A stretch of 64,000 nucleotides of DNA, from contig OZ242012.1 of the NCBI GenBank assembly GCA_965204795.1, positions 595,639 to 659,638 of the forward strand, given 5' to 3'. The notes under the pieces are model-generated. The model did not search any database, was not told the origin of the DNA, and was given only the letters and a program-made list of their open reading frames with translations. This document shows, piece by piece, positions 4,449 to 21,380 of the stretch (its first letter is position 1; every line of letters begins with the position of its first letter). The translations under genes and the position numbers were made by a program. The DNA comes from Thermodesulfobacteriota bacterium. GTDB taxonomy: Bacteria; Desulfobacterota_D; UBA1144; Nemesobacterales; Nemesobacteraceae.

Positions 4449-5987
4449 TCATTTCTCGTCTTCCTTTATTCTGGAAAAAAGATTTTCTCCCTTTTTTACT
4501 CCTGTACCGGCCTTGGTGTATCCCCAATCGGTACTCGCGGGACCCGCCTCCGAAGAAAGACCGAGCTTGGTACGGATTTCCCGGGAAGTCTCCGGAAGGA
4601 AGGGATAGATGAGAAGGGAGATTCCCCTTACGCTCTCGGCGAGCGTCCAGAGCACCGTCCCGAGCCGTTCGCGCTGTTTTTCCTCTTTTGCGAGTTTCCA
4701 CGGAGCGGCGTTGTCCACGTACCTGTTTACGAGCCCTATGAATTCCCATATAGCCGAAAGCGCCCTGCTGAACGCCAGTTCTTCGAGATGCCCGGCGACC
4801 CGCTCCGCCGTTTCGCCGTAAGCCTTCTCTATTTCCCTTTCGCCCTCCGACGGCTCTCCGGGTCTCGGAACGGCTCCCCCGAAGTATCTCTCTATCATTC
4901 CCAGGGAGCGGCTCACCAGGTTTCCGAGATCGTTCGCGAGATCTCCGTTTACCCTTCCCACGAGCGATTTCCTCGAGTAGTCCCCGTCCTGTCCGAAAGG
5001 TATTTCCCGAAACAGGAAGTAGCGGAATATCTCGGAACCGAATTCCTCCACCACCCTGTACGGGTCCACCACGTTTCCGAGCGACTTGGACATCTTCTCC
5101 CCCTCGACCGTCCACCATCCGTGGGCGAACACCGTTTTCGGAAGCGGGAGTCCCGCCGACATCAGAAAAGCTGGCCAGTAGACGGCGTGGAACCTCAGTA
5201 TGTCCTTTCCCACGAGGTGCATGTCCGCGGGCCAGAACTTCCCGAAGTTCCCGTCTTTTTCCGGAAAACCCAGGGACGTGAGGTAGTTTGTGAGGGCGTC
5301 GAACCACACGTAGATCACGTGATCTTCCGATCCCGGAACCGGGATCCCCCACGAGAAATCGGTCCGGCTCACGCTGAGGTCCCGAAGACCTCCCTCGACG
5401 AAGCTCACCACCTCGTTTCTCCTGTAGTCCGGCTTTACGAACTCGGGATGCTCCGCGTAGTGGCGGAGAAGCGGTTCCTGGTATCTTGAGAGGCGAAAGA
5501 AGTAGCTTTCCTCCTTTATCTTTTCGAGCTTCGGGCGGCTTTGCTCGGGAAGCTTCATCAGTTCTTCGACCTGGGTCTCGGTTACGAACGACTCGTTTCT
5601 GACGTCGTACCAGCCCTCGTATTCGTCGAGGTATATGTCCCCGCTTTTTTCCACCAGCCTCCATATTTCGCGGACCGCTTCCCTGTGGCGGGGCTCCGTG
5701 GTCCTTATGAAGTCGGTGTTCGATATTCCCAGGAGTTTCCAGAGGTCTTCAAACTTTCGAACGACCCTGTCGGCAAGCTCTGCGGGAGCCTCTCCGCTGG
5801 CTTCGGCGGTCTGCTCTATCTTTCTTCCGTGCTCGTCCGTCCCCGTCAGAAAATAGACTTCGTGTCCCGAGGCGGACCTGTGTCTCGCGATCGCGTCGGC
5901 CGCTATGGTGGTGTAGGCGTGGCCTATGTGCGGCACGTCGTTCACGTAGTATATGGGGGTCGTGACGTAGAAGCGTTTTTCATCCAT
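4449..5987 (-). CDS. metG: Methionyl-tRNA synthetase (short form, no C-terminal tRNA-binding extension)
   Basis: HIGH motif (PHIGHAYT), KMSKS, class I core; 512 aa. Confidence 0.95.
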   Translation of the reverse strand: MDEKRFYVTTPIYYVNDVPHIGHAYTTIAADAIARHRSASGHEVYFLTGTDEHGRKIEQTAEASGEAPAELADRVVRKFEDLWKLLGISNTDFIRTTEPRHREAVREIWRLVEKSGDIYLDEYEGWYDVRNESFVTETQVEELMKLPEQSRPKLEKIKEESYFFRLSRYQEPLLRHYAEHPEFVKPDYRRNEVVSFVEGGLRDLSVSRTDFSWGIPVPGSEDHVIYVWFDALTNYLTSLGFPEKDGNFGKFWPADMHLVGKDILRFHAVYWPAFLMSAGLPLPKTVFAHGWWTVEGEKMSKSLGNVVDPYRVVEEFGSEIFRYFLFREIPFGQDGDYSRKSLVGRVNGDLANDLGNLVSRSLGMIERYFGGAVPRPGEPSEGEREIEKAYGETAERVAGHLEELAFSRALSAIWEFIGLVNRYVDNAAPWKLAKEEKQRERLGTVLWTLAESVRGISLLIYPFLPETSREIRTKLGLSSEAGPASTDWGYTKAGTGVKKGENLFSRIKEDEK

Positions 5988-6145
5988 GGTTTCTCCCTTC
6001 TGGTCGGAAGGCCGCAGCTGCGATTAATAAAACACAATCGCCCCGTATTTCAATCACCGGCCGGTTCGGCTCCGAATGTACGTGCCTTTGATTTTTCAAC
6101 AATTAAAGCTATAATAATAACTGTTAAACAGGTAAAAATAAGATA

Positions 6146-6457
6146 ATGGATACTAAAATATCTTTTAATATGCTGTCGTCGCAGGAAATCCTGAAGGAGA
6201 TCTCTTCCCGCCTCAGAAGCCGCCGCCTCGCCCGCAACCTGACCCAGAAGGGGCTTGCGCGAAGAAGCGGGGTGGCGCTGGGCACTCTCAAGAAGTTTGA
6301 AAGCACCGGGCGCATCTCCCTGGCTTCCTTTGTCCGTCTGGCGGTCGCCCTGAAGGACGAAGCCGCCCTGGAAGGGCTTTTGCTCGAAGAAGAGTTCAGA
6401 ACTCTCGAAGACGTTATGAGGGCGGAAAGAAAACCCAGAAGGGGACGCATCACGTGA
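6146..6457 (+). CDS. hipB: HTH XRE-family regulator, HipB-like antitoxin
   Basis: 103 aa with helix-turn-helix (RNLTQKGLARRSGVALGTLKKFE). Its stop overlaps the downstream hipA start. Confidence 0.75.
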   Translation: MDTKISFNMLSSQEILKEISSRLRSRRLARNLTQKGLARRSGVALGTLKKFESTGRISLASFVRLAVALKDEAALEGLLLEEEFRTLEDVMRAERKPRRGRIT

Positions 6458-7698
6458 AAATCGCTCCGGGAACCCCGCTTGATGTATTCCTGCGCTGGGA
6501 CGCGGACGACGTTCAGCAGGTCGGCAGGCTCGCCTACAGGGACCGGGTCGCCTACCTTGAGTACGACGAGGATTTCATCAGGTCCGGACTTGAGATTTCG
6601 CCCGTCCGCCACGAACCCGAAGCGGGACTTTCGCGGCCGTACGTGGCGGACGTTTTCGAGGGTCTCCACGGAGCGTTCAACGACAGTCTTCCGGACGGCT
6701 GGGGGCGGCTGCTCGCGGACCGGCGGGCCCGCCAGCTCGGAACAGAACCGGAAACGCTCACGCCGCTTGACCGCCTCGCGTGCGTCGGAAGCGACGGAAT
6801 AGGGGCGTTGTGCTATTCGCCTTCCGTCGAGGCGTGGGAGGAGGGTGAAAACCTGGTTGACCTGGACCGGCTGGCCGCCGGTTCGAGACTGGTTCTCGAA
6901 GGGGAAGTCGGCGAAGTGCTCTCGGTTCTCGGGCGTGCCGGAGGTTCTCCCGCGGGGGCGCGCCCCAAGGCCCTTGTGGCTCTCGGAGACGACGGCCGCG
7001 CGGTCCACGGAACGGACGAAGCGCCCTTGTCGTACGAGCACTACCTGGTCAAGTTTCGGGGACGGGGAGACCCGTGGGACACGGCCGCGGTGGAAAAGGC
7101 GTACTCCGCGATGGCCGAATGTTCGGGAGTCGAGGTTCCCGAGACGAGACTGCTTGAGGGTCGCGACGGAAATCTTTTCTTCGCGAGTCGCCGGTTCGAC
7201 AGGGAAGGGAGCCGTCGCCTTCACGTTCATTCCGCGAGCGGGCTGCTGTATTCGGACATTCGATTTCCCGCGCTCGATTACGGGGACCTTGTTCTGCTTA
7301 CCCGAATCGTGACGGGCGACCATCGTGAATGCAGGAAAATGTTCGCGCTGGCCGTCTTCAACGTCCTGTCGCACAACCGCGACGACCACGCCCGGCAGTT
7401 CAGTTTCATTATGACGCGCGACGGCGCATGGAGACTCGCTCCGGCCTACGACCTTACGTGTTCGCCGGGTCCCGGCGGGCAGCACTCGACTTCCGTTCTC
7501 GGGCGTGGCGGGGACGTTACGCGACAGTGCCTCGTCGAGCTTGGACTGAAGGCGGATATGGAACGTGCGGAAGTCTCCCGGGTCATCAAGCGGGTTGAAT
7601 ACGGCGTTTCAAAATGGCCGGCGTTTGCCCGGGAGTGCGGGGTCGGCGGCGACTCGACGCGCGAAACAGCCCGCTTTCTCGACGAAGCGAGACTTTGA
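6454..7698 (+). CDS. hipA: HipA-family serine/threonine kinase toxin
   Basis: 414 aa. N-terminal HipA coupling domain with LPDGWGRLL. C-terminal kinase-like motif NVLSHNRDDHARQFSF. Four-nt overlap with hipB. Confidence 0.85.
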   Translation: MKIAPGTPLDVFLRWDADDVQQVGRLAYRDRVAYLEYDEDFIRSGLEISPVRHEPEAGLSRPYVADVFEGLHGAFNDSLPDGWGRLLADRRARQLGTEPETLTPLDRLACVGSDGIGALCYSPSVEAWEEGENLVDLDRLAAGSRLVLEGEVGEVLSVLGRAGGSPAGARPKALVALGDDGRAVHGTDEAPLSYEHYLVKFRGRGDPWDTAAVEKAYSAMAECSGVEVPETRLLEGRDGNLFFASRRFDREGSRRLHVHSASGLLYSDIRFPALDYGDLVLLTRIVTGDHRECRKMFALAVFNVLSHNRDDHARQFSFIMTRDGAWRLAPAYDLTCSPGPGGQHSTSVLGRGGDVTRQCLVELGLKADMERAEVSRVIKRVEYGVSKWPAFARECGVGGDSTRETARFLDEARL

Positions 7699-14524: not shown

Positions 14525-16477
14525 ATGGCGAAGCCCGAAGAAGGCGTTTTTCCGGTTCCCGAGGCCATGGCCCGGGAAGCCCTGGTCGACAGGGAGGGCT
14601 ACGAGCGCATGTACCGGGAGTCCGTCGACGACCCCGAGGCGTTCTGGGAAGCCCAGGGAAAGAGAATCGACTGGATCAAACCCTACGCGAAGGTAAAGGA
14701 CGTGAGCTTCGGTCCGGGGGACGTGCGAATAAGGTGGTTTTACGACGGCACGCTCAACGTGGCGGCGAACTGCGTCGACCGCCACGCGGAGGCGACTCCC
14801 GACAGGGTGGCGATCATCTGGGAGGGGGACGACCCCGCCGAGGACAGGAAGTTCACCTACGCGGAGCTAAGAACCGAGGTCTGCCGCATGGCCAACGTGC
14901 TTCGGTCGCTGGGAGTAAGAAAGGGCGACAGGGTGACGATCTACATGCCCATGATTCCCGAGGTGGCGTTCGCGATGCTCGCCTGCGCGCGCATAGGGGC
15001 GGTTCACTCGGTCGTGTTCGGCGGCTTTTCTCCCGAAGCCCTGGCGGGAAGGATAGAAGACTGCGGCTCGGCCGTCGTCGTGACGGCCGACGAGGGGCTT
15101 CGCGGCTCCCGGAAGGTTCCTCTCAAGCGAAACGCGGACGACGCCCTTTCGGCCGGGGCGGGGGAAATAGTGAAGAAGGTTCTGGTGGTCCGCCGCACCG
15201 GCGCCGAAGTGCCGTGGGACGCAGGGCGCGACGTTTGGTATCACGAGGCGGCCGCCGGGGTTTCGGACGACTGTCCGGCGGAAGAGATGGGAGCGGAGGA
15301 CCCGCTTTTCATTCTCTACACCTCGGGTTCCACGGGAAAGCCCAAGGGGGTTTTGCACACAAGCGGCGGATACCTCGTCTACGCGTCCATGACCCACCGG
15401 TACGTGTTCGACTACAGGGAAGGAGATGTCTACTGGTGCACGGCCGATGTGGGATGGGTCACCGGGCACAGCTACATAGTCTACGGGCCGCTCGCCAACG
15501 GAGCCACCACGGTGATGTTCGAGGGCGTGCCGAACTATCCCGACGTTTCGCGTTTCTGGCGGGTGTGCGACAAGCACGATGTCGCTGTGTTCTACACGGC
15601 GCCCACGGCCATACGGGCGATAATGAGGGAGGGAAACGAACCGGTCGAGCGTACCTCGCGGGCTTCGCTTCGCGTTCTGGGCACCGTCGGGGAGCCCATA
15701 AATCCCGAGGCGTGGACGTGGTACCACGAGGTGGTGGGGGATGGCCGCTGCCCGATAGTCGACACCTGGTGGCAGACGGAAACGGGGGGAATTCTCATAA
15801 CTCCCCTTCCCGGGGCCACCGACCTCAAGCCGGGTTCCGCCACGCTTCCCTTTTTCGGCGTCCGGCCGGAACTTGTCGATTCCGAAGGCCGGGTTCTCTC
15901 CGGCGCGGCGGAAGGGAACCTGTGTCTGGCCGATTCGTGGCCGGGGCAGATGCGGACGGTCTACGGGGACCACGAGCGTTTCGTCGAGACCTATTTCTCC
16001 GCGTACCCGGGAAAGTACTTCACCGGCGACGGCTGCCGTCGCGACGAGGACGGCTACTACTGGATCACGGGCAGGGTGGACGACGTGATAAACGTGTCGG
16101 GCCACCGCATGGGAACGGCGGAGGTGGAAAGCGCCCTCGTATCACACCCGGGCGTGGCCGAGGCCGCCGTGGTGGGCTACCCGCACGAGATAAAGGGCCA
16201 GGGCATCTACGCCTACGTCACCCTGAACGCCGGCCGGGAGCCTTCCGAGGAGCTTCGGGGCGAACTGGTGAAATGGGTCAGAAAGGAAATCGGGCCCATC
16301 GCGTCGCCCGACCTGATCCAGTGGGCCCCGGGACTTCCGAAAACGCGCTCGGGCAAGATCATGCGCCGCATACTGCGCAGGATCGCGGCCGACGAGTACT
16401 CCGACCTGGGAGATACCTCGACGCTCGCCGACCCGTCGGTGGTGGACGACCTCATAGACAACCGAATGAACAGGTGA
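14525..16477 (+). CDS. acs: Acetyl-CoA synthetase (AMP-forming)
   Basis: Typical ACS N-terminus ([15 protein letters not shown]), AMP-binding motifs [12 protein letters not shown]-terminal [11 protein letters not shown]. Start chosen at MAKPEEG. Confidence 0.95.
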
Positions 16478-16621
16478 GGTTTTGCCCGTTACTTCTCCGA
16501 TTCGCGAGTTCGAGCTTGCGGGCCGCTCCCGCGTCTTCATTTGCCTTGGTTGAACTTCCGCCTCGAGAAAGTCGGGGAAAACTTTACAAATTTGCATTTA
16601 TGTTCTATAATTGCAAACAAC

Positions 16622-17752
16622 ATGATAAAACGGACGGTTGAAAGCAGGCTTCTCCGCCTGGCGGGACAGTATCCCGTCGTTACGGTCACGGGGCCCAGGC
16701 AGTCGGGCAAGACGGTTTTATCCAGAAAATGCTTTCCGGAACATCTCTATCTCAATCTGGAGAAACCGGATACGCGCGAATACGCCAGGAAAGATCCCGT
16801 GGGCTTTCTCGCCCAGTCGGAGAAAATGGTTATAGACGAGGTTCAGCGCGTGCCCGACCTTGTTTCCTACGTTCAGGCCGCGGTCGATGAAAGCGGCGAA
16901 GCGGGACGGTTTATTCTGACCGGCAGTCATCAGTTCGGGCTGACCGAAGTGGTCTCCCAGTCGCTGGCGGGACGCACGGTGCTGATAACCCTGCTTCCGT
17001 TTTCACTGAGGGAGCTGGGAGATACATCTCCGTATGAAAACCTGATTTACAGGGGATTCTACCCTAGGATAATAGACAGGAAGCTGAACCCCACCGAGGC
17101 GCTTTCGTTCTACGTCGATACGTATGTCCGGAGAGATTTGAGAGAGATAAAGGAAATCAGGAACCTGAGCCGGTTCGAAGATTTTCTTCGGCTTTGCGCC
17201 GCCAGCGTGGGACAGATGCTCAACATGTCCCGCATGGCGAACGATGTCGGCGTCGCCGTAAATACCGTAAAGGCGTGGATTTCCGTTCTGGAAGCGAGCT
17301 ATGTTGTATATCTGCTCCGGCCGCATTACAGGAATTTCAGAAAAAGAATCGTGAAAACTCCCAAGCTTTACTTCTGCGACGTGGGACTTGCTTCTTATCT
17401 TCTGGACATAAAGAAGGTCGAGCACGTGAAGTCGCACCCGCTTCGGGGAATGCTTTTTGAAAATCTTGTCGTCGTGGAAAAAATCAAGCGGAAGTTCAAC
17501 AACGTCGAACGGCCTTCCCTGTATTTTTTCAGGGACAACACGGGCAACGAGGTCGATCTTCTGGAAGAAGAGGGAAGTCATGTTGTTTCCTACGAGATAA
17601 AAATGGCGAAGACCCTGGACTCGAACCAGTTCAGGGGGCTTAACTTCTACAGGAAGCTCAATCCCGAAAACAGCAGATCGGTTCTTGTTTACACGGGTTC
17701 CGAGAAGACAACCCGGTACGGGCACGAATGCCTGCCTTTCCGGCATGTCTGA
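16622..17752 (+). CDS. AAA+ ATPase of the COG1373 family (AAA_14 plus DUF4143-like C-terminus)
   Basis: Walker A TGPRQSGKT, Walker B MVIDEVQ, C-terminal YFFRDNTGNEVDLL motif. TATAAT-like element upstream. It sits on the left flank of a low-GC islet. Confidence 0.75.
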   Translation: MIKRTVESRLLRLAGQYPVVTVTGPRQSGKTVLSRKCFPEHLYLNLEKPDTREYARKDPVGFLAQSEKMVIDEVQRVPDLVSYVQAAVDESGEAGRFILTGSHQFGLTEVVSQSLAGRTVLITLLPFSLRELGDTSPYENLIYRGFYPRIIDRKLNPTEALSFYVDTYVRRDLREIKEIRNLSRFEDFLRLCAASVGQMLNMSRMANDVGVAVNTVKAWISVLEASYVVYLLRPHYRNFRKRIVKTPKLYFCDVGLASYLLDIKKVEHVKSHPLRGMLFENLVVVEKIKRKFNNVERPSLYFFRDNTGNEVDLLEEEGSHVVSYEIKMAKTLDSNQFRGLNFYRKLNPENSRSVLVYTGSEKTTRYGHECLPFRHV

Positions 17753-17909
17753 TATATACTAATCGGTTGAACCCAAGGTGCTTGAGACCCTGCTACGGTC
17801 TTTGTTTCTTGGCGGATCGCCCGCAGGCCCGGTATACGGGTTGTTCGGAAGAATAACGGCCTGAACGGTTTCTGGCCGAAGCCGTCGAGAATAACGAGGA
17901 GGATATGAG

Positions 17910-18281
17910 ATGGAAATGCCGGAGAAGTTTTCCTTTAGGGTTCTCGAAGAGAAAATTATCAGAAAGCTGTTTTACAAAAAGGATGTTATTAGGAAGCTGC
18001 TTTACAGGGAAGAAGGAGAATATGTAGCCCACTGCCTGGAGTTTGATCTGGTTAACACTTCAACGAGGTCGTTTGAAGAGGCTTCCGCGGAGTTGAATGA
18101 ATTGCTGGAAGACTATGTGAGTTACGCGTGCGAGTACAACGAGTTCCAAAATCTCTACAGGTTCGCTCCCGTTAAATACTGGATAATGCTTCAGTTCGGG
18201 ACGCGTCGCGAAGATTCCTCCGAACAAGAACATGTCAACGTCTGCGACATGACCTACAGAATTGAAACATCCGCCGTGTAG
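17910..18281 (+). CDS. HicB-like / UPF0150-like small protein (RNase H-like antitoxin-type fold); function uncertain
   Basis: 123 aa with EGEYVAHCLEFDLVNTSTRSFEEASAELNELLEDYV, resembling the HicB N-domain pattern. AGGAGGA SD 7 nt upstream. Low-GC DNA. Confidence 0.45.
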   Translation: MEMPEKFSFRVLEEKIIRKLFYKKDVIRKLLYREEGEYVAHCLEFDLVNTSTRSFEEASAELNELLEDYVSYACEYNEFQNLYRFAPVKYWIMLQFGTRREDSSEQEHVNVCDMTYRIETSAV

Positions 18282-18473
18282 ATGCGTCGGGCCGGAGGAC
18301 TCCGCCCGAAACGGAGTTTTCCGCATGTGTTGAGAGAAGCGGCGAGGCTCGGAAAAGATTTACTACGGGGGAAGGTAGAGTTAGAATAATCCAGAGTCTG
18401 TCTTTGCGGAACTTGACGGAACTGTCCAATTTCTGTCAGGGCTGCGGATTGCCGGAGAAGCGGCGGGGGAATT

Positions 18474-19625
18474 GTGAAAAAACACTTTTTCAGATCTCTT
18501 GAGATAGAGAATTTTCGCGGTATCAGAACCTCCAGAATCGACAACTTTGCGAGGGTCAATCTTTTTGTGGGCGAGAACAGCTGCGGAAAGACAACCATTC
18601 TGGAATCGCTGTTCCTTCTGGCGGCCATCCGGGACCCTAGCAGGATGGTTAACATTCAGAATTCCAGAGGAATATATCTTACGGAGCCCAGAGACTTGGC
18701 AGATTTCTTTTTCGAACAGAAGCATGAAAACAATCTGCGTTTAACCGGAACTCATGAATCCGGGAAGAGAGAACTGACAATCAACGCTTTATACAGAGAC
18801 TCGCGTGCTTCTCGAACAGACAGTCAGCAGGAAAATGGAAGCGGAAACAACCATATTCTCAAAGTAAACAACATGGATTCCAAAACGGATGACTGCCTGC
18901 TTGGATTGGGATACACATTCTCGGTTTCCTGCAACGGGGACGGGGGCCCCGACCAGCATAATTCCAAAGTTGTTGCGACTTGGAGCGGTTCTCCTGTCGA
19001 GAGGGCGAGATTCGAAACATATATTGACGAGAAATATAAAGAGAAATCTTTGAACAGCGTTGCCGTGATTAGAGGGTCAAAGGATTCATACGAACACCTT
19101 CCCGTTGACGGCATTGGTAAAATGCTTCAGGAAAAACGTAAAGATATTCTACTGGAAAGTCTTCAGAAGATTGATCCCAGAATCCAGGACATACAGGTCA
19201 GCACTGCAGGAGTTGTTCTCGCGGATATTGGAGTTAAAAGCTTCATTCCTTTGAATCTCCTGGGAGACGGATTGCTTCATATGGTCAATCTTGTTTCTCA
19301 TGTTGACGATACCAGGGGTGGAATTCTGATGATTGATGAATTCGGTTCGGGTTTTCATGTCTCCTGCGTTGAATACATCTGGAAAGTTCTCATAGAGCAG
19401 TCGGGAAAATACGACACACAGGTATTCATGACTACTCACAGCAAGGATGTGGTGGAAGGTCTGGCGGGCTTGCATGAACGGGAACCCGATCTTTTTTCCG
19501 AAGATGGGGACGACGTCGCGTGTTTTTATCTGGGGAAAAACAGCGAGGGTCGAGTGAAAGGATACAGATATTCTCCTGAGGATATAAAGCAAGTTCTGAA
19601 ATCAGACACAGATATTCGCCACTAA
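18474..19625 (+). CDS. OLD/PARIS-AriA-like ABC-type ATPase (AAA_15/AAA_21 family)
   Basis: GTG start. N-terminal LEIENFRGI, Walker A GENSCGKTT, Walker B ILMIDEFGSGFH, H-loop TTHS. 383 aa, low GC. Confidence 0.85.
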   Translation: MKKHFFRSLEIENFRGIRTSRIDNFARVNLFVGENSCGKTTILESLFLLAAIRDPSRMVNIQNSRGIYLTEPRDLADFFFEQKHENNLRLTGTHESGKRELTINALYRDSRASRTDSQQENGSGNNHILKVNNMDSKTDDCLLGLGYTFSVSCNGDGGPDQHNSKVVATWSGSPVERARFETYIDEKYKEKSLNSVAVIRGSKDSYEHLPVDGIGKMLQEKRKDILLESLQKIDPRIQDIQVSTAGVVLADIGVKSFIPLNLLGDGLLHMVNLVSHVDDTRGGILMIDEFGSGFHVSCVEYIWKVLIEQSGKYDTQVFMTTHSKDVVEGLAGLHEREPDLFSEDGDDVACFYLGKNSEGRVKGYRYSPEDIKQVLKSDTDIRH

Positions 19626-19626
19626 A

Positions 19627-20226
19627 ATGTCTCAGAAAGTGTGTATTTTTGTTGAAGGGAAGGAGGATTCTAATTTCCTGGAATCCTACGTTGGTTATCT
19701 GGGCTATGAACTGCCGGAAATAAGACCCATAGGCGGGAAAGACAATCTTAAAGGGAATCGTCTGGAGATTGCCAAAAAATTAGATGAAGAAGACGCAAGG
19801 GTGCTGATTGTATTTGACGCCGATGATGATTATGGGAAGACGAAAGATGAGGCAAAGAGAACTATCCAAGACAAGGTGCAGGTAAACGACGGAAATTCCC
19901 GTCTGGATTTTTTTCTTTTCCCCAACAATCAGGACTCGGGAAACCTGGAAGACCTGCTCGAAAAAATCATAAAGTCCGAACACAAGGGTATCTTTGATTG
20001 TTTTGAAGCCTACAAGGAATGTCTGACGGAGCGGGACCCTTCTTACCTCCATCCGGACAAGAAGGCTAAAATTTATACATACAAGCAATCTCTGGGAGCA
20101 GTGAGAGAAGGGAGAGAATATCATTTCAGTCCGAAATACTGGGAATTCGAGAACAGTTCTCTCGACCCGCTGAAAAGTTTTCTTTGCGAGAATTTTCGCA
20201 AGAGCGGTCTGGAAAAAGTACGATAG
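19627..20226 (+). CDS. Small Toprim-like protein (DUF4276/DUF4435-like by recollection), putative nuclease partner of the ATPase
   Basis: 199 aa. ATG is 1 nt after the ATPase TAA. Toprim-like acidic motifs CIFVEGKEDSNFL (conserved E) and LIVFDADDD (DxD). Confidence 0.6.
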   Translation: MSQKVCIFVEGKEDSNFLESYVGYLGYELPEIRPIGGKDNLKGNRLEIAKKLDEEDARVLIVFDADDDYGKTKDEAKRTIQDKVQVNDGNSRLDFFLFPNNQDSGNLEDLLEKIIKSEHKGIFDCFEAYKECLTERDPSYLHPDKKAKIYTYKQSLGAVREGREYHFSPKYWEFENSSLDPLKSFLCENFRKSGLEKVR

Positions 20227-20284
20227 AACTAAAAATTCATCTTCAAAGTCTCCGGCGGAGAGTCCCACTCTGCGAGGCGGGAAA

Positions 20285-20635
20285 ATGATACGGGTAACAG
20301 ACGAGATGCTTCGAGACATGGTGAAAGTCATAGTGGATGAAGTCGACCCCGAGCAGGTGATACTCTTCGGTTCACATGCCCGCGGCGACGCGTCCGCGGA
20401 CTCGGACGTGGATTTTGTCGTTATTGAATCGTCTCCGTTCGGAGCGGGCAGGGACCGGCGTCTTGAAGCTGCGCGTCTGTGGCGCGCGCTGGCGGATTTT
20501 GACGTTCCAAAGGACATTCTGCTGTACAGCGGCGACGAAGCTGAGTACTGGCGCGACTCTATCAACCATGTCCTCGCGCGCGCACTTCGCGAGGGGAAAA
20601 TTCTCTACGAGAGACCTTCAACCGATGAGGCTTAA
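20285..20635 (+). CDS. Nucleotidyltransferase (MNT/Pol-beta superfamily) domain protein
   Basis: GSHARGDASADSDVDFVVI motif, 116 aa. Its 3' end overlaps the rluB-like start by 12 nt. Confidence 0.8.
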   Translation: MIRVTDEMLRDMVKVIVDEVDPEQVILFGSHARGDASADSDVDFVVIESSPFGAGRDRRLEAARLWRALADFDVPKDILLYSGDEAEYWRDSINHVLARALREGKILYERPSTDEA

Positions 20636-21380
20636 CAGATTTCTTTCCGCCTGCGGCGTGACGTCGAGAAGAAAGGCCGACAACCTGATAAACGCGGGGC
20701 GGATTACCGTAAACGGCGAGGTAATCCGTACTCTGGGACATACCGTGGACGAGTCTTCGGACACCGTGCTTCTCGACGGAAAGCCCGTGCGTCCCGAAGA
20801 AAAAAGATACGTGATGCTGAACAAACCTCCCTTTTACCTCACTTCGCTGAAATCCATGGAAGACGGGAAGGAAACGATAACGTCTTTTCTCAAGGGCATA
20901 AGACAGAGGGTCTATCCGGTGGGCAGGCTGGACTACGACTCGGAAGGGCTTCTGCTTCTAACAAACGACGGCGAGCTCGCGAACAGGATACATCACCCGA
21001 AGTACATGGTCGTGAAAACCTACCTTGCGGAAGTCTCGGTAAAGCCCGCGGCCGGGCTTGAAGAAAAGCTGAAAAGGGGAACCGAGATCGAAGGCCGGTT
21101 CACCGAGCCCGACGCTCTTGAAATTCTCGACCGCTCCCCCCGGGGCGCGCGGATAAGCGTCTCCTTTCACGAGGGGAGAAAGCACCTCGTGAAGAAATAC
21201 TTCGAGGCGTTCGGTCTCAGGGTGACCAGACTCATGAGAATTTCCTGCGGCGACATAAGCCTGGGAGAGCTTCCGAAGGGAAAGTGGCGCGACCTCAGTC
21301 CCGCGGAACTTCGCGGGATACGGAAAATGACGGGACTTCTGTCCGTAACCGGAAACGGGACGCGGGAGGACGCGCCGTGA
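20624..21380 (+). CDS. rluB: RsuA/RluB-family pseudouridine synthase (S4 domain plus PseudoU_synth_2)
   Basis: MRLNRFLSACGVTSRRKADNLI S4 N-terminus, catalytic GRLDYDSEGLLLLTNDG. The longer listed ORF (from 20376) overlaps the MNT gene, so an internal start was chosen. Confidence 0.8.

Follow-up and report, generated by a model that had tools for sequence, protein, structure and literature searches.

The window analysed here comprises 64,000 nucleotides of contig OZ242012.1 from a Thermodesulfobacteriota metagenome-assembled genome. It contains a variable chromosomal slot bordered by acs, which ends at position 16477, and rluB, which starts at position 20625 (Table 1). The GC content of this slot is 0.489 versus 0.597 elsewhere in the window. 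It amounts to 0.462 in the segment 17753-20284 (0.59 for the window), the second lowest value among 615 overlapping segments of 2532 nt (minimum at 17801), and the GC3 of ORF2 (0.49) and ORF3 (0.48) is far below that of acs (0.82). The first-pass annotation had located the GC drop between a DUF4143 ATPase gene and an MNT gene. The dip itself is confirmed, but its left boundary is not, as the DUF4143 ATPase gene is also GC-poor (0.52) and the low-GC stretch already begins at ~16478. The three co-directional ORFs described in this segment are present with the expected lengths and the 1-nt spacer between ORF2 and ORF3, as are the motifs LEIENFRGI, GENSCGKTT and ILMIDEFGSGFH in the ATPase and FVEGKEDSNFL and VFDADDD in the small protein. 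No tRNA genes were found within the window, an Rfam scan of 16300-20800 gave no matches, and neither convincing flanking direct or inverted repeats nor an integration-site signature were detected.

Table 1. Features of the acs–rluB region (positions within the window).
Feature	Position	Strand	Remark
Variable chromosomal slot acs–rluB	16478..20624	+	Four conflict-type units in the source genome
AAA_14/DUF4143 ATPase gene, 376 aa	16622..17752	+	Neighbour outside the module; PADLOC candidate PDC-S01
ORF1, divergent HicB/UPF0150-like antitoxin gene, 123 aa	17910..18281	+	Solo (without HicA partner)
Sigma-70-like promoter of the ATPase-nuclease operon, TTTACT-17 nt-TAGAAT	18359..18387	+	Predicted; conserved
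ORF2, AbiLi-type ABC ATPase, 383 aa, OLD/AAA_15-AAA_21 class	18474..19625	+	Presumed sensor and regulator
Hypervariable ATPase insertion, ~aa 101-225	18774..19148	+	Candidate trigger-sensing domain; also aa 51-75 at 18624-18698
Recombination patch: ATPase C-terminal ~40 aa and DUF3226 Toprim core (aa 1-~108)	19500..19950	+	Inherited as a unit
ORF3, DUF3226/AbiLii-type stand-alone Toprim nuclease, 199 aa	19627..20226	+	Presumed effector
Orphan MNT-type nucleotidyltransferase gene, 116 aa	20285..20635	+	Neighbour; 11-nt overlap with rluB start

ORF2 starts with GTG, at a position that aligns with the ATG or GTG starts of its homologs. The best of its 111 PADLOC matches is the AbiLi model PDLC02336 (6e-53, 178.6 bits), with residues 6-382 aligned to positions 2-340 of the 340-position model. 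A second AbiLi model (PDLC02335) is matched at 2e-15 only, PDC-M38A at 1e-43, and AriA in two partial stretches at 5e-17. The Pfam models AAA_15, AAA_21 and AAA_23 all exceed their cut-offs, and the Walker A, LGDG signature, Walker B, D-loop and H-loop motifs are conserved across 14 homologs. ORF2 is an intact ABC ATPase of the OLD/AAA_15 type. Its hypervariable insertion shares 24-44% aa identity (53-62% nucleotide identity) with the alleles of homologous loci L018 and L004, compared to 60-80% aa identity in the nucleotide-binding lobes. The predicted promoter motif is kept in the window and in loci L021, L018, L023 and L004, even amid unalignable flanking DNA. This promoter is located downstream of ORF1, and the operon would therefore be independent of ORF1 transcription.

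The ATG of ORF3 directly follows the TAA stop of ORF2 and its spacer nucleotide. ORF3 matches Pfam DUF3226 (PF11536) over its full length (70.0 bits, GA 27; residues 7-190 on positions 4-207 of the 208-position model), and PF11536 is present in all but one of 114 ORF3 homolog clusters. The best PADLOC match is AbiLii (PDLC02338; 7.8e-11, 40.5 bits, positions 8-121 of the 125-position model), which is also matched by the DUF3226 allele of L004 (1.4e-9), and PDC-M38B scores 3e-9. The protein reaches DUF4435 with residues 4-73 only (E 0.004, 17.4 bits, under GA 27) and PADLOC AriB at E 0.0045; no significant match was obtained to the Pfam Toprim_OLD models, and none to Pfam DUF4276 at E≤1. The small protein shows a Toprim fold with a β-α core, a conserved Glu, a DxD motif and OLD-type second-metal and Lys residues. 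These putative catalytic residues (E10/D64/D66, D14/E108 and K146) are conserved and match the metal A, metal B and Lys scheme of OLD nucleases (PMC7049728). The initial impression of an unusually short Toprim partner proved incorrect, because DUF3226 homologs usually measure ~180-235 aa and ORF3 aligns full length with the ~200-aa catalytic region of Class 2 OLD.

The earlier description as an OLD-type ABC ATPase with a separate small Toprim protein thus captures the architecture, here as a translationally coupled operon, but its attribution to PARIS or a DUF4276-type module does not stand. Since AbiLi is matched at 6e-53 over the full length and AriA at 5e-17, the module is assigned to the AbiL/PDC-M38 type. 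We consider it likely that 18359-20226 constitutes a self-contained two-gene operon of this type, with its own promoter, an AbiLi-like ATPase and a coupled DUF3226/AbiLii-like Toprim nuclease that would be equivalent to the whole C-terminal catalytic part of an OLD nuclease. In AbiL as defined by PADLOC, too, a gene for a Rad50/OLD-type ABC ATPase comes first and is followed by an adjacent, co-directional gene for a small predicted TOPRIM/OLD-type nuclease, and AbiLi and AbiLii are the best HMM matches of the two proteins. AbiL has been placed among the ABC ATPase and TOPRIM defence systems together with PARIS, OLD and MADS3-4 (PMC11464382, PMC13064643). The window pair differs from AbiL in that it is chromosomal and resides in a Thermodesulfobacteriota genome, whereas the prototype lies on a lactococcal plasmid, and in that a strong match is limited to one AbiLi model out of two. 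The label 'AbiL' ties the pair to this prototype through PADLOC HMM labels only, and no Lactococcus homologs of either protein were found at E≤1e-3 (tblastn, 72,556 plasmids).

The pair likewise matches both PDC-M38 models. PDC-M38 is a PADLOC guilt-by-embedding candidate, defined from genes inside BREX, DISARM or type I RM loci, and the window pair is not embedded in any of these; no known defence system lies directly next to it, the adjoining genes being candidate or TA-type. In a pair encoded on Klebsiella plasmids, the ATPase matches AbiLi and the DUF3226 protein matches PDC-M38B instead of AbiLii, which indicates that the AbiL and PDC-M38 labels cover one ATPase and DUF3226 continuum. The same family labels are returned for the divergent alleles described below and for the plasmid homolog. 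PADLOC or DefenseFinder would already label the module AbiL/PDC-M38, so that its contribution is a further member from a phylum with sparse sampling and not a new kind of system. Neither 'DUF3226' nor 'PDC-M38' turns up as a term in the searchable literature, and no phage records encoding a DUF3226 relative were found.

Of 14 genomic loci spread over several phyla, 12 carry a clear ATPase match directly 5' of the DUF3226 gene. ATPase and Toprim are two separate ORFs in all homologous loci. About 130 small ColE1-type Klebsiella plasmids carry the pair as their only cargo, and IS elements lie on both sides of it in L032. The pair also occupies the acs–rluB slot in all nine sampled genomes of the clade to which the window belongs, which are near-isogenic (Acs 93-99% identical), as divergent, reshuffled alleles. 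In the more distant relatives L024 and L025 the pair is absent and the slot holds a Fic/DOC gene. The comparison with relatives proposed by the first-pass annotation thus delimits the whole acs–rluB interval as the variable region. The genes are not core genes of all relatives, given the absence of the pair from L024 and L025 and of ORF1 from L004, L018 and L023. The presence in 9/9 clade genomes combined with the absence in two distant relatives identifies the pair as accessory and compositionally foreign, but as a long-time resident of the clade. The segment is thus no recent islet specific to one strain.

Across the nine genomes, at least five types of ATPase allele and three of nuclease allele make up seven combinations, and the breakpoints are sharp and recur. 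From acs to rluB, L021 shares 97-100% identity with the window, except for the recombination patch (58-69%). Towards L018, identity climbs from 53-73% to 97-99% at ~19450-19520. Variation in the ATPase tail (aa 351-383) goes along with the type of DUF3226 allele. The clade locus is a mosaic of ATPase and nuclease alleles that have been reassorted in the fixed acs–rluB slot. RluB of L004 shows 92% identity. The DUF4143 gene is missing from L025 and, in L023, either missing or no more than a remnant.

By analogy with PARIS, OLD and Gabija, an oligomer of the ATPase may keep the Toprim nuclease inactive while its hypervariable insertion domain watches for a phage-derived cue. Binding of the trigger, together with ATP binding or hydrolysis, would then free or open the Toprim active site. 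The nuclease could cut host or phage nucleic acid through two-metal catalysis involving E10/D64/D66, D14/E108 and K146, and cleavage would halt growth or phage replication (abortive infection). Its target might be tRNA if the enzyme resembles AriB or P2 OLD, or DNA if its activity follows that of GajA or of Class 1/2 OLD in vitro. More tentatively, ATPase and DUF3226 pairs may form a distinct class of split OLD-like systems, in which the nuclease stands alone as the counterpart of the Class 2 OLD catalytic region. The alleles would then expose a modular build with a swappable hypervariable insertion, as candidate trigger sensor, and a separately inherited unit of ATPase tail and Toprim core, as candidate docking interface. 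If this is true, the clade supplies ready-made chimeras with which one could map what governs specificity and how the nuclease is gated in ABC-ATPase/Toprim immunity. Concrete targets for mutation are offered by the conserved two-metal residues and by the alignment of the entire ORF3 protein with the OLD catalytic region. The nine-genome allele series is a clean natural case of segmental reshuffling within a predicted defence operon and could guide chimera work on sensor-effector coupling.

The pair might instead serve mainly as a selfish addiction or stabilisation module of the toxin-antitoxin kind, with the nuclease in the toxin role and the ATPase in that of antitoxin, a function suggested by its solitary occurrence on the Klebsiella plasmids, the bracketing IS elements in L032, the TA-type genes nearby (solo hicB and MNT, Fic in relatives) and the action of PARIS as a type II TA system (PMC13064643). 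We regard this as unlikely. Addiction and defence are compatible readings, and a hypervariable insertion with allele reassortment at a fixed locus is more typical of arms-race sensing; the lactococcal namesake also confers phage resistance (PMC13064643).

ORF1 raises the question of a third component. The 123-aa ORF is preceded by GAGGAGG 8 nt upstream of its start, in agreement with the strong SD noted before, and its homologs begin at the second in-frame ATG (17916). Its match to Pfam UPF0150 remains below threshold (E 0.02, 15.2 bits, GA 27.3), its family profile matches the UPF0150/HicB-fold protein TTHA1756 (PDB 2yzt, E 0.003), and its AF2 model is of poor reliability (pLDDT 42.6). A recognisable DNA-binding domain is not present. 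Residues 29-96 form a nearly invariant core across homologs with an overall identity of 63-72%. In L019/L020, L027 and L029-L031, an ORF of 82-83 aa begins 2-3 nt after the homolog (78-100% identity to the L020 copy, tblastn), and this ORF matches Pfam HicA_toxin just above GA in L020 (27.7 bits, GA 27) and below it in L027 (20.8 bits, E 4e-4). No hicA was found in the window or in L021, and the 192-nt spacer between ORF1 and the ATPase gene contains no recognisable trace of HicA. Because hicA is missing here and present beside these homologs, ORF1 of the window is taken as a solo antitoxin-type gene. A hairpin downstream of ORF1 (18293-18323) is not claimed as a terminator, because it is no better than shuffled sequence (z = -0.77) and lacks a T-run.

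A three-component system, in which ORF1 regulates the ATPase-Toprim pair or acts as its antitoxin, would agree with an adjacent, co-directional and intact gene with a conserved core that accompanies the pair in 6/9 clade loci. We judge it very improbable. ORF1 is missing from the remaining three clade loci and from 10/10 non-clade loci with the pair, its homologs in L019/L020 and L029-L031 have their own HicA partner and that in L027 occurs with HicA apart from any DUF3226 pair, the conserved predicted promoter lies downstream of it, and sliding identity assigns it to a separate recombination segment. Of the two roles proposed earlier for the HicB-like gene, that of third component is therefore abandoned and that of orphan antitoxin-type gene retained. 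The data support ORF1 as unrelated cargo, presumably the antitoxin part of a cassette of the hicB-hicA type that has no toxin gene in this lineage.

Membership in PARIS (AriA/AriB), with a truncated AriB, is effectively refuted. The layout agrees, in that an ABC ATPase precedes a stand-alone Toprim protein, weak matches exist to AriA, AriB, AriAB and DUF4435, and a scaffold formed by the ATPase, which detects a trigger and then frees the nuclease, is a plausible common logic. However, AbiLi and PDC-M38A surpass AriA by 26-36 orders of magnitude, and the nuclease belongs to DUF3226 and not to DUF4435, whose score falls short of the cut-off. The proteins of 383 and 199 aa are also far smaller than AriA and AriB (roughly 55 and 35 kDa; PMC11464382), and ORF3 is not truncated because 199 aa is normal for the DUF3226 family. 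A housekeeping DNA-repair pair of a RecF/Rad50-like ATPase and a RecR-like Toprim protein can be dismissed, as such matches are limited to the Walker A region and lie far under the family cut-offs, and the pair is GC-poor, mosaic, absent in related genomes, carried on plasmids and found beside IS elements.

Two further candidates were rejected. MADS is matched far more weakly than AbiL (mad3 4.6e-12, mad4 5e-5; NCBIfam MAD3 34 bits, cut-off 420), and the neighbours are DUF4143, MNT and rluB, without a methyltransferase. A DUF4276-type ATPase-associated module was discarded for want of a DUF4276 match in the partner. In the OLD nucleases (Class 1 P2/Ts OLD; Class 2 Bp/Xcc OLD and GajA), ATPase and Toprim are fused, whereas they are separate polypeptides here, and the UvrD-like helicase partner is absent. 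PDB sequence searches with the ATPase and with a DUF3226 profile yielded nothing meaningful, and fold comparison had to be used instead. DUF3226 has its structural prototype in PH0156 of Pyrococcus horikoshii (PDB 2p62), which structural genomics lists as a 'hypothetical protein'; the sequence identity is 15%.

Two further genes of the region are neighbours of the module. The 376-aa neighbour matches Pfam DUF4143 (2e-46) and AAA_14 (2e-26) and PADLOC PDC-S01 (6e-99), and a near-consensus promoter-like site is predicted 5' of its gene at 16583-16611. The MNT-type protein matches Pfam NTP_transf_2 (3e-9) and Polbeta (4e-9) and scores 34 bits against NCBIfam MntA, under the cut-off of 60; its allele in L023 is only 43% identical. 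The gene has no HEPN partner in the window, and in L024 an MNT and HEPN pair is located 3' of rluB.

The three co-directional ORFs proposed in the first-pass annotation are present at the coordinates it assigned to them, and every motif quoted for their products is found. They comprise a HicB-like gene (ORF1), an ABC ATPase gene (ORF2) and a gene for a small Toprim protein (ORF3). The GC trough is equally real: 17753-20284 has a GC content of 0.462 against 0.59 in the window (second from the bottom among 615 same-size windows), and the GC3 of ORF2 and ORF3 is 0.48-0.49 versus 0.82 for acs. Its onset had been placed too far downstream, as GC is already reduced (0.52) in the preceding DUF4143 gene and the anomaly thus starts at ~16478.

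Features of the acs-rluB interval in the window and in two relatives
Feature	Position	Strand	Remarks
AAA_14/DUF4143 ATPase gene	16583-17752 with promoter site	+	PADLOC candidate PDC-S01, 6e-99
ORF1 (HicB-like)	17910-18281	+	123 aa
Predicted sigma-70-like promoter of the ORF2-ORF3 operon	18359-18387	+	TTTACT, 17 nt, TAGAAT
ORF2 (ATPase)	18474-19625	+	383 aa, GTG start
ORF3 (DUF3226 Toprim protein)	19627-20226	+	199 aa, ATG 1 nt past ORF2 stop
Orphan MNT-type nucleotidyltransferase gene	20285-20635	+	Overlaps rluB start codon region by 11 nt
Fic/DOC-family gene (414-417 aa), replacing the pair	L024 5317-6570; L025 5003-6247		acs-rluB slot

ORF2 encodes an ABC ATPase of the OLD/AAA_15-AAA_21 class (Pfam). 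The top PADLOC model by a wide margin is AbiLi (PDLC02336, 6e-53, entire model covered), followed by the PDC-M38A models (1e-43); AriA matches in two partial stretches only (5e-17), GajA, PtuA and mad3 score below AriA, and a second AbiLi model reaches only 2e-15. The NCBIfam models RecF, MAD3, PtuA and Rad50 match the Walker A end only, far under their cut-offs. Across an alignment of 14 ATPase homologs, Walker A (G-x-N-x-C-G-K-T), Walker B (L-x-I-D-E), an LGDG signature-like motif, the D-loop and the H-loop (T-H-S) are kept. Between the alleles of related genomes, most divergence falls in an insertion region: identity is 24-44% at aa 51-75 and 101-225, compared with 60-80% in the nucleotide-binding lobes. 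The ATPase of one compared locus (L013, 4873-5994) reads NNYCKT in place of NxCGKT and may be inactive because of this altered Walker A.

ORF3 is a predicted Toprim nuclease of the DUF3226 family. The match to Pfam DUF3226 is full-length (70 bits, GA 27), and PADLOC AbiLii (8e-11) and PDC-M38B (3e-9) match as well. The first ~75 residues also align, weakly but in register, with the beginnings of the DUF4435, AriB, mad4 and OLD-like_TOPRIM_1 models. The AF2 model, built with 76 homologs, is confident (pLDDT 92.5, pTM 0.89) and places a helical C-terminal half after a four-strand beta-alpha core. Its best four Foldseek matches are OLD catalytic regions (6nk8, 6njx, 6njv and 6p74; prob 0.99-1.0), with an alignment that covers the entire ~200-aa Class 2 OLD region. 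Among the 76 homologs, E10 and an acidic residue at position 14 are conserved in 74/74, D64, E108 and K146 in 76/76, and D66 is D in 66 and N in 10. In OLD, metal A is bound by a Glu and a DxD motif, metal B by an acidic residue four positions past that Glu and a later Glu, and the helical part supplies a Lys or Arg (PMC7049728). The conserved ORF3 residues appear to mirror this scheme, with a one-to-one equivalence that we infer from sequence order. The family match, the OLD matches and the conserved catalytic residues together uphold the Toprim homology of the small protein. Its supposedly unusual shortness does not hold, since the 114 homolog clusters found in the database search, all but one annotated with PF11536, typically span ~180-235 aa.

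The earlier interpretation was therefore right on superfamily and architecture (an OLD-type ATPase with a separate Toprim protein), and the family needs revision. PARIS was rejected on the partial AriA match (5e-17) versus the whole-model AbiLi match (6e-53). Since AbiLi and AbiLii are the best PADLOC assignments and the literature already counts AbiL, together with PARIS, OLD, Gabija and MADS3-4, among the defence systems that combine an ABC ATPase with TOPRIM (Burman et al. 2024, PMC11464382; FEMS Microbiol Rev 2026, PMC13064643), the ORF2-ORF3 pair is predicted to be AbiL-type in PADLOC's definition. The module thus belongs to a kind already known and catalogued, for which the same literature describes the mode of action as still undetermined. 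The tie to the lactococcal AbiL prototype appears to run via the PADLOC label only, with no direct link found: no Lactococcus match to the module proteins was present among 72,556 plasmids. By their profile matches, the labels AbiL and PDC-M38 overlap: in a Klebsiella plasmid pair the ATPase is AbiLi (2e-58) and the DUF3226 protein is PDC-M38B, not AbiLii. PDC systems are untested candidates based on guilt-by-embedding, and neither 'DUF3226' nor 'PDC-M38' is mentioned in the searchable full-text literature.

ORF2 and ORF3 form a self-contained unit whose pairing is conserved. At 12 of 14 genomic loci retrieved via DUF3226, a clear AbiLi-like ATPase match (tblastn) ends directly 5' of the DUF3226 gene, in Thermodesulfobacteriota, Latescibacterota, a gammaproteobacterium and a Rikenellaceae MAG; L016 has just a weaker ATPase match nearby, and no tblastn match was found near the gene in L017. 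One of the 12, L014 (Latescibacteria), has matches split between frames at 5526-6548 and is apparently frameshifted or degraded. The pair also occurs on ~130 small enterobacterial plasmids, mostly of Klebsiella. In the one plasmid whose cargo was looked at in detail, the 4.2-kb ColE1-type L028 (NZ_CP024435.1), it lies at 437-2184 and, rop and an HTH gene apart, is essentially the sole cargo; its genes bear just the annotations 'ATP-binding protein' and 'DUF3226 domain-containing protein'. At L032 (3628-8073) an IS30-type (rve) transposase gene lies on each side of it and genes of the IS21 and IS4 types are near, which looks like a possible composite-transposon context; this pair is ~52% identical to that of the window. 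The operon promoter motif is kept even between alleles that cannot otherwise be aligned in the DNA around it.

In nine related genomes with Acs 93-99% and RluB 86-98% identical, the pair is located between acs and rluB in 9/9, in a variable slot (16478-20624 in the window). It is not a strain-specific islet: all nine carry it, as mosaic alleles far more diverged than Acs and RluB. AbiLi is 53-99% identical (at least five allele types) and DUF3226 53-89% (three types); the types occur in seven combinations, and grouping the genomes by AbiLi, by DUF3226 or by Acs gives mutually discordant results. Sliding nucleotide identity against the window reveals sharp breakpoints within a 95-100% identical background. 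L021 differs at 19500-19950 only (58-69% identity), a stretch made up of the ATPase tail and the Toprim core. In L018 the ORF1 segment is missing and the ATPase body is of another type (53-73%), but identity is 97-99% from ~19520 on. L020 departs from the window in two places, the ORF1 region and the C-terminal part of DUF3226. Among the by-products of the analysis, this series of mosaic alleles is the most useful. As all nine loci were located via the module's own genes and such a sample is blind to empty sites, sampling via rluB was added. Two more distant relatives, L024 and L025 (Acs ~85% identical), lack the pair, which is therefore accessory and not core in all relatives. It was acquired before the diversification of this clade, and its low GC, which has persisted and recurs in L004, fits ongoing exchange with a foreign allele pool. 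A further small variable segment at the slot edge is the acs-DUF4143 intergenic region (16400-16620), where identity falls to 67-80% between genomes that share 97-99% on either side of it.

ORF1 is a real gene, given its nearly invariant core (residues 29-96), with close homologs in six clusters only. Its family profile recovers 300 remote relatives of ~100-130 aa and matches the UPF0150/HicB-fold protein TTHA1756 (2yzt) with E 0.003; Pfam UPF0150 stays under threshold, and the AF2 model is unusable. In L019/L020, L029-L031 and L027, an 82-83-aa ORF starts 2-3 nt 3' of the ORF1 homolog. The L020 copy passes Pfam HicA_toxin (27.7 bits, threshold 27), the L027 copy matches more weakly (E 4e-4), and the remaining copies are 95-100% identical to that of L020 (tblastn). 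ORF1 of the window and L021 is a different type, 61-64% identical to the hicA-linked type, and no hicA was found beside it in either locus. DNA similarity between the window and L027 ends ~15 nt past the ORF1 stop, and ORF1 is missing from L004, L018, L023 and all non-clade loci. Between a third module component and an orphan antitoxin-type gene, the hicA-linked homologs elsewhere, the lack of hicA here and the frequent absence of ORF1 argue for the latter: ORF1 is probably a solo HicB-like antitoxin-type gene from a separate cassette, and unrelated cargo. L027 (1-12372) is a separate, unrelated defence island in a related metagenome, with two tandem, Septu-like AAA_15/21 ATPase and HNH-nuclease pairs and a hicB-hicA-like pair to which the ORF1 homolog belongs. 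It also has two genes for AbiEi and one for AbiEii. Directly 3' of the ORF1 stop lies a 12-bp hairpin, CGGAGGACUCCG ... CGGAGUUUUCCG (18293-18323). It is no stabler than shuffled controls (z = -0.77) and has no T-run, so that a terminator role is doubtful.

By analogy with PARIS and OLD, the ATPase assembly would hold the nuclease inactive and sense an infection cue, plausibly via its hypervariable insertion domain. On activation, the two-metal Toprim site would be exposed and the nuclease would cut tRNA or DNA, aborting the infection. What the sequences themselves show are intact motifs, conserved pairing, translational coupling and the variability pattern. In three independent comparisons, the C-terminal ~35 residues of the ATPase are co-inherited with the Toprim core, which suggests that both may form a docking unit.

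Among the neighbouring genes, DUF4143 is preceded by a near-consensus promoter-like site (11/12 matches). As this site ends ~10 nt 5' of the ATG, it points to an mRNA with a very short leader or none; L025 lacks the gene, and L023 has only a remnant of it. The MNT gene of the window has no HEPN partner, a complete MNT and HEPN pair lies 3' of rluB in L024, and the L023 MNT allele is just 43% identical to that of the window.
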